Below, one piece after another: positions 2 to 4,828 of a stretch of DNA of 4,828 nt; positions within the stretch are counted from its first letter, which is position 1; every line of letters starts with the position of its first letter. The translations under genes were made by a program, and so were the position numbers. This stretch comes from a virus. Taxonomy: Duplodnaviria > Heunggongvirae > Uroviricota > Caudoviricetes. The notes beneath the pieces are model-generated. The model searched no databases. It saw nothing but the letters and a program-made list of their open reading frames with translations, and was not told the origin of the DNA. The stretch lies in IMG/VR virus record IMGVR_UViG_2541047125_000007. One strand, written 5' to 3'.

Positions 2-53
2 ATTGATGTCACGACGGAAGATTTAGCAAGTGCGCTTGATGTGACGGAAGACG
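2..53. repeat. Two direct iteron-like repeats (TTGATGTCACGACGGAAGA and TTGATGTGACGGAAGACG)
   Basis: Copy 1 is at about 3-21 and copy 2 at about 36-53, differing by a 3-nt indel and one substitution. Both contain the GTCAC/GTGAC core seen in the downstream iterons and encode a repeated DVT(T)ED peptide in the initiator. Confidence 0.4.
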
Positions 54-865
54 TAATTGATTCAATTTTGCATGCAATGCAGGGGCGGGTTCTGGATGGT
101 GACCTTATTTCCGGATGGGAAAAACGTCAGGTGCTGAAAGAGGACAATGGTAATGTTTCGCAAACCGCAAAATCCCCGGCAGAGCGCAAGAGAGCGCAGC
201 GGGAGCGGGAAAGACTGCGGAAGCAGAACACTGATTGTCACGATGAGTCACGACGCGTCACGCATATGTCACGACAAGTCACGACAGATACAGATACAGA
301 TAAAGAATTAAACCCCACACATAACGCGCGCATGCGCGAGAGTGCTCCGACCAGTGAGTCGAATGGCGCGCCGTTGCAGACAGCCGAACCTGAATACCTG
401 GACGGCCTGAGCGAACCGATCGGGAAATTTCCGATGACTGGTGTCTGGCAGCCGTCGCCGGATTTTCGACAGCGGGCAGCAGTGTGGGGTATGGCTCTGC
501 CTGAGCCTGAGTTTACACCTGCTGAGCTTGCCGCATTCCGGGATTACTGGATGGCGGAGGGGAAGGTTTTCACGCAGGTTCAGTGGGAGCAGAAATTTGC
601 CCGTCACGTGCAGCACGTCAGGGCACAGGTAAAACCAGTCAGCAAGGGGGGAAGCCATGCAGCATCAGGTGGCACGGCATCACGGGCAGTTCAGGAAATC
701 CGGGCTGCACGCGAACAGTGGGAACGTGACAACGGATTTATCAGCAACGGAAACGGCCTGGAAGCTGTGGGAGCTCATGGGGGAGGTGTATTCGAACCGC
801 TGGACTCAGAAGAACGGGGCCGCACCTTCGAAGCTCTGGATTGCCCAGATTGGTGCGATGACTGA
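2..865 (+). CDS. Phage replication initiator, 5'-partial, with a DnaT-like C-terminal domain
   Basis: The frame is open from window position 2 with no upstream stop, so the true start lies left of the window (the ORF track's GTG at 41 is internal). Stop is TGA at 863-865. Residues from about nt 410-630 (PIGKFPMTGVWQPSPDF...FTPAELAAFRDYWMAEGKVFTQVQWEQKFARHVQ) closely match my recollection of the C-terminal ssDNA-binding domain of E. coli primosomal protein DnaT. A basic linker (AERKRAQRERERLRKQ) is followed by the iteron-encoded segment, as in lambda O-type initiators with an internal ori. Confidence 0.8.
   Translation: MDVTTEDLASALDVTEDVIDSILHAMQGRVLDGDLISGWEKRQVLKEDNGNVSQTAKSPAERKRAQRERERLRKQNTDCHDESRRVTHMSRQVTTDTDTDKELNPTHNARMRESAPTSESNGAPLQTAEPEYLDGLSEPIGKFPMTGVWQPSPDFRQRAAVWGMALPEPEFTPAELAAFRDYWMAEGKVFTQVQWEQKFARHVQHVRAQVKPVSKGGSHAASGGTASRAVQEIRAAREQWERDNGFISNGNGLEAVGAHGGGVFEPLDSEERGRTFEALDCPDWCDD
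233..340. repeat. Putative replication origin: five helically phased TCACGAC-type iterons, an AT-rich tract, then a 12-bp GC palindrome
   Basis: TCACG cores start at 238, 248, 258, 269 and 279 (spacing 10, 10, 11, 10 bp). They are followed by (GATACA)-like repeats and the AT-rich stretch agatacagatacagataaagaattaaa (about 285-311), then the perfect palindrome CGCGCATGCGCG at 327-338. This is the same order of elements as ori-lambda, which lies inside the O gene. Confidence 0.6.
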
Positions 866-1319
866 ACAGCAAATCCGTCTGGTGTGCCGTCAGTGCATGG
901 ACCGCTGCCGGGCGGGTGAAACGTGGCCCCCGGACCTGGCTGAGTTTGTTGCGCTGATTTCGGAGAGTGGGGCAAATCCATTTGGTCTTACGGTGGATGC
1001 CGTGATGGAAGAGTACCGGCGCTGGCGCAATGAATCCTGGCGATACGACGGGAGTGATAAATACCCGTGGCCACAGCCTGTGCTGTACCACATCTGCCTC
1101 GAAATGCGTACCAGAGGGATTGAGCGCCAGATGACGCAAGGTGAGTTAAAACGACTTGCAGAACGGCAACTGACGAAATGGGCAAAGCAAGTTGGTAACG
1201 GGATGAGTATTCCCCCGATCCGGAGACAACTCGCATCGCCGAAGTGCCCGCAAGGGCCAACGCCAATTGAATTACTGAAACAGGAATACGAGCGCCGGAA
1301 GGCGGCTGGTTTTGTTTGA
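657..1319 (+). CDS. P: Lambda P-like replication protein (DnaB helicase loader family)
   Basis: The C-terminal two thirds align by eye with lambda P (WPPDLAEFVAL ~ FLPSPGQFVAW; YPW; GELKRLAERQL ~ AELRRKAADEL; IPPIRRQL ~ IPEPVKQL). ATG at 657 is preceded by a strong SD (AAGGGGGGAAG at 644-654), and the frame opens just after a TAA at 630-632. Stop is TGA at 1317-1319. Alternative starts are ATG 777 (GGGAG SD) or ATG 858; the N-terminal similarity to lambda P seems to extend upstream of 858, favouring 657 or 777. Confidence 0.75.
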   Translation: MQHQVARHHGQFRKSGLHANSGNVTTDLSATETAWKLWELMGEVYSNRWTQKNGAAPSKLWIAQIGAMTEQQIRLVCRQCMDRCRAGETWPPDLAEFVALISESGANPFGLTVDAVMEEYRRWRNESWRYDGSDKYPWPQPVLYHICLEMRTRGIERQMTQGELKRLAERQLTKWAKQVGNGMSIPPIRRQLASPKCPQGPTPIELLKQEYERRKAAGFV

Positions 1320-3879: not shown

Positions 3880-4437
3880 ATGACCACTATTACCAAAGAT
3901 CGACTGCTGACAATCCAGCATTGGCGCGAAACATACGGACCGGGTAGCAACGTTGTGCTTCCAGCAGAAGAAGCGGAAGAGCTGGCACGGATTGCGCTGG
4001 CATCACTGGCAGCAGTATCGGATGAACGAGCAGCCTATGAATTATTTATGGAGAAGCGTTTCGGAGAATCTGTAGATCGCCGCAGAGCAAAAAATGGCGA
4101 TAGAGAATACATGGCATGGGATATGGCGCTTGGCTGGATTATCTGGTGTCACCGCGCCGCCATGCTTCAGGCTGGAAACTTTCGGGAAAATAAGGGTTCG
4201 TCAACCAATAATTTTCGGATAATCTCGGAAACGTCAACCAACTCTCCGGCAATCCCTGATGAGGTGTTGTCCGCAATCCTGAAGGTCGCCAGGCTTCGTG
4301 CAGATTTCGATGCTTCTGAAGTGGACAGGCGAGGTATCGGTAGTTGTCTGGATGAGGCCGAGCAAGAACTTATCGTTACCATTAACGAATACGCCAGTCA
4401 GATCGCAGTAGAAGCGACACAGGGGGAGAACCAATGA
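3880..4437 (+). CDS. Hypothetical phage protein (185 aa)
   Basis: ATG at 3880 is 2 nt after the upstream stop, with a weak SD (AAGGTGA). Stop is TGA at 4435-4437. It is in the same orientation and tightly packed with its neighbours. I do not recognise the family with confidence. Confidence 0.65.
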   Translation: MTTITKDRLLTIQHWRETYGPGSNVVLPAEEAEELARIALASLAAVSDERAAYELFMEKRFGESVDRRRAKNGDREYMAWDMALGWIIWCHRAAMLQAGNFRENKGSSTNNFRIISETSTNSPAIPDEVLSAILKVARLRADFDASEVDRRGIGSCLDEAEQELIVTINEYASQIAVEATQGENQ

Positions 4438-4677: not shown

Positions 4678-4828
4678 TCGGGCAAAACGGTTTGCTGTAA
4701 AGCGAGAGTTAAGTAGAATTGCTGCGGGTGCTTGAGGCTGTCTGCCTCGGGCATGCCACCGTAAGGTAGACAGAGAAAAGCCCCAGTTAACATTACGCGT
4801 CCTGCAAGACGCCTAACATTAATCTGAG

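Follow-up and report, generated by a model that had tools for sequence, protein, structure and literature searches.

Positions 237–325 of the DNA stretch analyzed here (4,828 nt of virus record IMGVR_UViG_2541047125_000007, hereafter the window) most probably form the origin core of a Rac-like lambdoid prophage, located where the initiator gene codes for a predicted disordered linker between two domains. This core consists of an array of direct repeats (iteron array II, 237–285) and an A-rich tract (284–325), and another repeat array (array I) lies upstream within the same gene. Selection acts at the DNA level on the repeats, on their phasing, and on the AT tract, and the two arrays, which co-vary, travel with the N-terminal domain of the initiator as one module. 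The original prediction had confined the origin to 233–340, an extent that proved too small once the second co-varying array was found upstream.

Bases 1–1320 of the window are 96% identical to a prophage of Escherichia coli O157:H7 strain 493/89 (NZ_CP038412), in which the initiator counterpart is CDS WP_001414697. The O157 gene order runs integrase, excisionase, exonuclease, dicB, racR, an HTH-domain gene, a YdaT-family gene, initiator, loader, and DUF1627; the initiator and P-like loader thus sit downstream of racR, the HTH-domain gene, and the ydaT-family gene, and it is on this order that we call the source a Rac-like lambdoid prophage. The O157 record annotates the initiator as a 345-aa “DnaT-like ssDNA-binding domain-containing protein” and the loader as “replication protein P”, and none of the records examined carried an origin annotation. 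Approximately 1260 of 5426 complete E. coli genomes match the initiator/P-like loader region, 658 of which, O157:H7 among them, have most of the region covered, N-domain and iterons included. The window holds the 3′ part of the initiator gene (2–865, plus strand; 864 nt encoding 287 of 345 aa), the start being 173 nt left of the window, and for this reason array I is mostly cut off and was hidden from the original prediction. Further downstream, the start of the DUF1627 gene contains a perfect tandem duplication of GCACTGAAA (1371–1388, encoding ALKALK), and the last bases of the window (4726–4828) match the Rfam sok antitoxin RNA (61.3 bits, clipped by the window end), marking the start of a hokD/sok toxin–antitoxin locus that the O157 record annotates immediately downstream.

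The initiator is named a replication initiation protein in PHROGs and a “phage replisome organizer” by NCBI. Its C-terminal domain had been predicted to be DnaT-like, and this is borne out by a Pfam DnaT match (E = 1e-17) and by DnaT crystal structures, to which the domain is 58% identical, the ssDNA-binding three-helix domain being encoded at 428–628 (plus strand). For the N-terminal domain, no Pfam match was obtained at E ≤ 0.1, including RepA_N (PF06970) and Phage_rep_org_N (PF09681); a Phage_rep_O match was likewise absent, and the domain is not lambda-O-like. PHROG matches of the initiator were weak (DnaD-like, 5e-8; replisome organizer phrog_4880, 3e-4). In an AlphaFold2 model of a full 345-aa homolog (P0001), the N-domain is a winged-helix domain with a DnaD-NTD-like fold, predicted with confidence over aa ~10–100 as three helices, a beta-hairpin (47–56), two helices, and a wing, followed by a basic helix (117–135), a disordered segment (138–195), and the DnaT-like bundle. 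Residues ~137–165 of 345, encoded by array II plus the AT tract, fall inside this predicted disordered segment, as expected from the earlier claim that the repeats encode an inter-domain linker.

The adjoining lambda-P-like helicase loader ORF extends from 657 to 1319 (plus strand; RefSeq start 858), overlapping the initiator tail out of frame. It matches Pfam Phage_lambda_P (PF06992, E = 8e-16) over residues 58–187 and phrog_109 (“P-like helicase loader”) over residues 18–219 of 220 aa. Since this family homology starts upstream of the RefSeq start at 858, the two genes probably share as much as ~209 nt (657–865) in different frames. Two database proteins, P0048 and P0072 (481 and 496 aa), are initiator–P fusions; in one, the frames join at a G5 run near nt 783, while the other could be explained by a deletion that links the frames between nt ~720 and 770. 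PHROG 15931 is a 482-position profile spanning both replication genes.

Array II, the proposed initiator-binding core, comprises five direct repeats on the plus strand with the core GTCACG. The core starts (237, 247, 257, 268, and 278; spacing 10, 10, 11, and 10) and a TRF analysis of the window (period 10, 4.9 copies, 237–286) agree with the five repeats at ~10–11-bp phase that had been described from the sequence. GTCAC occurs five times within 50 nt, while the maximum across 5000 dinucleotide-preserving shuffles of the window was three, reached seven times. The first G of successive cores falls at codon positions 2, 3, 1, 3, and 1, and such varying codon positions indicate a repeat of DNA rather than of peptide. 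When GTCACGAC was counted with one mismatch across the whole window, seven copies were found against 3.3 expected, which is not significant alone, so that the signal lies in the clustering of copies. Within 50 kb including the prophage, at least three GTCACG per 60 nt were found in arrays I and II only.

The full initiator gene of the O157 locus contains six further cores at 10–11-bp spacing, ~230 (229) bp upstream of array II and inside the coding sequence of the initiator DNA-binding domain. These copies of array I read, in order, GTCACGAAAT GTCACGAAAT GTCACGGCGA GTCACTACGTG GTCACATTGAT GTCACGAC, the last of which falls at 8–15 of the window (plus strand), with the other five left of the window at 3955–4002 of L001. 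Array I has no adjacent AT-rich tract. A single inverted iteron copy is present at 41–46 (minus strand, CGTCAC; top strand GTGACG): in 17 of 24 loci, a GTGAC follows the final array-I copy at a distance of 33 nt, and all 20 sequences use GTG for Val at the inverted copy. In L109 (IMGVR_UViG_2751185961_000003), arrays I and II are directly joined ~90 nt upstream of position 1501, a junction consistent with an inter-array deletion that would drop half of the DNA-binding domain.

A one-genome-per-species scan yielded 38 loci with the same N-terminal domain (48–94% identity), from hosts including Escherichia, Shigella, Rahnella, Serratia, Erwinia, Pantoea, Pseudomonas, Bordetella, Aquitalea, Chromobacterium, Acidovorax, and other Gamma- and Betaproteobacteria; 37 of these were analyzed, the one left out covering only the first 29 residues. 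Both arrays were present in 24 loci at equal gene positions (array I at nt ~128–180 and array II at nt ~378–450), with 3–6 copies per array at 10/11-bp spacing. Neighboring cores within an array were 10 bp apart 100 times and 11 bp apart 31 times, and the hexamer GTCACG was the only conserved part of the iteron, the flanks being degenerate. The comparison of iterons across related prophages that had been proposed as a check thus shows the 10/11-bp phasing to be kept among related loci. We further compared codon choice at alignment columns with a conserved, degenerate amino acid. The fraction of sequences using the top codon was 0.95 in the 14 columns overlapping cores versus 0.53 in the 57 others (Mann–Whitney p = 3.5e-8), in genes spanning 42–68% GC, and the array II codons TCA, GTC, and CAC were used in 100% of sequences. 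The dual constraint suggested for this DNA is seen as synonymous codons frozen over both the cores and the AT tract. A recognizable array I was absent in five related loci, three of which keep a shorter conserved element adjoining the AT tract, and two of which have a GIY-YIG-like insertion in the linker.

Several homologs carry endonuclease-like insertions or fusions. In L039 and L040 (Serratia and Pantoea), a GIY-YIG endonuclease-like insertion (YYVY..GIS.NPW) occupies the array II position in the linker, and in some homologs HNH domains (PF01844 and PF14279) are fused after the N-domain; proteins with such insertions or fusions include P0160, P0184, P0185, P0203, and P0235. Together, the GIY-YIG-like insertions and HNH fusions suggest that homing endonucleases target the origin/linker position. 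Separately, five homologs (L026, L033, L038, L041, and P0141) were attributed to MAGs of Anaerolineaceae, Terracidiphilus, Solirubrobacteraceae, and Collinsella, and to Staphylococcus saprophyticus. These off-clade homologs show as much as 100% identity to proteobacterial versions, and hence probably represent mis-binned or contaminant contigs rather than the true host range.

Directly after the repeats, the A-rich tract at 284–325, a putative DNA-unwinding element, is made of (ACAGAT)3.8 at 284–306 followed by AAAGAATTAAACCCCACACATAA, and encodes TDTDTDKELNPTH; the GATACA-repeat AT-rich tract previously noted after the repeats is thus present. The tract is 67% A+T (A alone makes up 52% of its coding strand), compared to 48% A+T for the whole window, and represents the GC minimum of the gene. 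Of 32 loci, 29 have GATAMA units 3′ of array II, also where the gene is only 32–39% A+T, and mean A+T across the loci compared was 0.67 in the tract versus 0.45 in the genes. Asp in the tract is encoded by GAT in 21/21 sequences, including genes of 65–68% GC, and both Asp and Lys codons (GAT and AAA) are maintained at this gene GC. Among close relatives, the number of GATAMA units ranges from three to nine, and that of iterons is five or six. The tract encodes in-frame TDTDTD/DKDKDK repeats whose number varies in a microsatellite-like way, and this, like the varying iteron number, would be expected if the repeats, devoid of DNA-level function, resulted from the coding of a low-complexity linker or from slippage during its replication. 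Yet the 10/11-bp period does not match the codon frame and uses all three codon phases (69/45/50 across 21 GTCACG-class loci), synonymous positions are frozen across Gamma- and Betaproteobacteria, and GAT and AAA are used for Asp and Lys even in the GC-rich genes. Free variation at the 57 control columns also argues against an artifact of recent common ancestry in the codon test, and we consider such a by-product very improbable.

The last element of the proposed arrangement, a 12-bp GC palindrome, fared differently. The sequence CGCGCATGCGCG at 327–338 is indeed a perfect palindrome, but it belongs to the variable features of the DnaT-like C-module and did not hold up as a conserved origin element, a role rejected after inspection of 80 viral contigs with a 92–98% identical C-module. 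Roughly half of these close relatives have lost or changed it: CGCGCATGCGCG is present in the other half or so, ~24 of the 80 have the same iterons with a 6-bp deletion that removes the palindrome and leaves AACGCGCGCGAG, and 16 DUF1376-type contigs have the non-palindromic AACGTGCGTGAACGCG instead. The palindrome is also absent from PPompW, and nothing comparable was found in loci with other C-modules. E. albertii has a different perfect palindrome, GCGCACGTGCGC, which may be meaningful or may be mere alternating-GC sequence. Judging from these comparisons, the palindrome is probably not an origin element. Terminator-like matches at the palindrome were dismissed for want of a real T run, and a scan of 1–1400 identified no sigma-70-like promoter sites.

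The ability of this palindrome to form a short hairpin speaks for reading the region as an RNA or single-strand DNA structure, e.g., a translational or frameshift signal. Single-strand folding of 225–345 was, however, no better than that of shuffled sequences (z = −0.29, with 83 of 200 shuffles folding as well), the palindrome is not conserved, no conserved compensatory pairing was apparent in homologs, and the sok match at 4726–4828 is the only Rfam match in the window. The probability of such a structure is accordingly close to negligible.

The loci could be divided into core classes, namely GTCACG (24 loci), GTAACG (4 loci), and CGAACGC (4 loci), and in every class the commonest hexamer is identical in arrays I and II. 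These classes disagree with protein relatedness: the N-domain of Erwinia L025 (GTCACG) is 83% identical to that of Enterobacter L027 (GTAACG) and ~70% identical to those of other GTCACG loci, while the GTAACG loci L035 and L036 are nearer to members of other classes. The core has thus switched in both arrays together, and more than once. All 26 GTAACG copies are in codon phases 1 or 2, as phase 3 would read the stop codon TAA, and the two phase-3 copies in GTAACG-class loci (one each in L018 and L027) are both still GTCACG; in the GTCACG class, 50 of 164 copies are in phase 3. This avoidance of phase 3 by GTAACG makes a conflict of coding and binding constraints visible.

Modularity is observed at the 3′ edge of array II. 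Rac-SA53 and PPompW share the DnaT-like C-module, and their match to the window begins at nt 286 and 302, respectively, which places a mosaic joint at the iteron/AT boundary. These two elements have other N-domains (DUF1376 in Rac-SA53 and HTH_36 in PPompW) and other repeats just upstream of the joint, i.e., an inverted TGTTCAAACA pair in Rac-SA53 and six or more ACCCAAA-type repeats in PPompW. Conversely, the N-domain, arrays, and GATAMA tract described here occur with many unrelated C-terminal parts, and isolated phages with the same N-domain and arrays include Escherichia phage Tritos and Pseudomonas phage phi1. The unit of exchange is thus the N-domain plus iterons (plus AT tract). In the record of phage phi1 (KT887557; L124 2501–3397), no annotation is given for the 299-aa initiator ORF, which contains both GTCACG arrays, and several related Pseudomonas phage records have the initiator entered as one or two “hypothetical proteins”.

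This linkage to the N-domain bears on whether the repeats could bind another protein and serve, e.g., in partition as a parC-like centromere, in packaging, or as repressor operators. Plasmid R1 parC has comparable arrays of direct repeats, and two arrays of about five 10–11-bp direct repeats are reminiscent of it. We nevertheless regard binding by another protein as highly unlikely, since the repeat core changes with the N-domain module and other N-domains bring other repeats to the joint, the prophage is devoid of annotated partition genes, the terminase genes are ~15 kb downstream of the arrays, and the layout is kept in integrated prophages of many genera.

Array I encodes the beta-hairpin of the DNA-binding domain (aa ~45–60, ASRNVT..RGH..VT), and within the folded domain, residues distinguishing the GTCACG, GTAACG, and CGAACGC classes are found only in this hairpin, with further ones in the basic helix. 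The hairpin Arg is conserved with all four CGN codons used, so the hairpin is under protein-level selection as well. It is conceivable, although rather doubtful, that the hairpin helps read the core and that array I thus goes beyond an auxiliary role, in which case binding site and specificity determinant would be one DNA stretch and the module would be self-referential. If this were true, a core change would alter its reader simultaneously, which could explain the repeated emergence of new specificities in both arrays.

In the origin reading, the DnaD-NTD-like winged-helix N-domain would bind the GTCACG cores, and, as these are one helical turn apart, bound initiators would share one face of the DNA, possibly allowing cooperative binding and DNA distortion. 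Strand opening would take place at the adjoining A-rich (GATAMA)n tract, and, by analogy to the known roles of DnaT and lambda P, host DnaB helicase would be brought in by the DnaT-like ssDNA-binding C-domain and the P-like protein. Array I and the inverted copy would be auxiliary sites, maybe contributing to initiation enhancement, looping, or copy control. Several features were counted against this reading: the AT tract in E. coli is only ~62–67% A+T, the putative recognition helix (aa 74–84) is acidic and variable inside the GTCACG class, and the five loci noted above have no recognizable array I. Alternatively, the arrays may be initiator sites for control only (roadblock autoregulation, handcuffing, or copy control as for P1 incA/F incC), with opening elsewhere in the prophage. 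In the iteron plasmids P1 and F, the second array is regulatory, and both the presence of two arrays ~230 bp apart with an inverted copy and the lack of an AT-rich tract next to array I resemble such a system. On the other hand, array II is always joined to the A-rich tract, which is kept even in GC-rich genes, other iteron clusters are absent from the 50 kb examined, and lambda, SPP1, and pSK41 all use repeats within a gene as their origin (PMC7466680, PMC6316719, PMC5703833). A purely regulatory role is thus unlikely, and an origin core at 237–325 remains the preferred reading.

We then considered how this candidate origin relates to known ones, and first to ori-lambda, whose order of iterons, AT-rich tract, and palindrome it had been said to reproduce. 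The iterons followed by an AT tract inside the initiator gene stand, whereas the palindrome is not conserved and the likeness is architectural only. Lambda has 4–6 long iterons of ~19 bp with dyad symmetry. The repeats here are instead 6-bp cores repeated directly every 10–11 bp, in two arrays where lambda has one, and the initiator combines a DnaD-NTD-like N-domain lacking a Phage_rep_O match with a DnaT-like C-domain. As both iteron type and N-domain differ, this locus falls outside the lambda O/ori family. Similarities to gene O of lambda and Stx phages include an origin in the middle of the initiator gene, with iterons directly followed by an AT-rich tract, an initiator N-half paired with its iterons, and a C-half working with an adjacently encoded P-type loader (PMC7466680).

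Parallels in protein organization come from the initiators of RepA_N plasmid replicons such as pSK41 Rep, in which the origin DNA encodes a dispensable linker (PMC5703833). As here, pSK41 Rep and the pPR9 chimera have a DnaD-NTD-like winged-helix N-domain (with binding to the repeats presumed in our case), central repeats in their own gene, an origin that codes for the linker, and a C-domain specific to the host machinery (PMC5703833). In pSK41/pPR9, N-domain and origin were swapped as a module, also for one with a pfam13730 HTH domain (compare the window relative L003), and the module exchange described above can be likened to both these plasmids and lambdoid O genes (PMC7466680, PMC5703833). 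RepA_N iterons, by comparison, are usually semi-palindromic around a poly-A tract (PMC7145576), and RepA_N systems belong to Gram-positive plasmids rather than to a Proteobacteria prophage. The initiator here has no Pfam RepA_N match, and its C-domain is DnaT-like and followed by a P-like loader, in place of a DnaG-binding domain. In fold and layout, the locus therefore fits a replisome-organizer/RepA_N organization, whereas in sequence profile it does not.

[quoted passage not shown] However, the second origin of SPP1 is 13 kb away while the second array here is 230 bp away in the same gene, and sequence similarity is marginal (phrog_4880, E = 3e-4, without a Pfam Phage_rep_org_N match). Finally, an active origin, oriJ, has been reported for the E. 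coli K-12 Rac prophage (PMC3945230), which shares with our locus the prophage type and neighborhood (racR, HTH-domain gene, ydaT-family gene, and an initiator with a DnaT-like C-module). The Rac-type relative compared here differs in that the Rac-SA53 ydaU has a DUF1376 N-domain and different repeats, the inverted pair noted above. Our literature search returned mentions of oriJ without coordinates or a sequence-level definition, no description of GTCACG iterons, and nothing usable on the phage D3 origin.

An origin inside a lambdoid initiator gene was to be expected, and the protein family already had a name. New are the bipartite layout, with one array in the coding sequence of the DNA-binding domain, the concerted core switching, and the microsatellite-like, putative unwinding tract. 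While the general picture of phage origin construction stays unaltered, the iterons defined here provide a candidate origin for Rac-like and D3-like phages, and the iteron class offers a rule to predict the compatibility of replication modules between co-resident prophages. These loci also represent a clean natural case of a single DNA stretch under both protein-coding and protein-binding demands, in which stop-codon avoidance limits the sites that can change.
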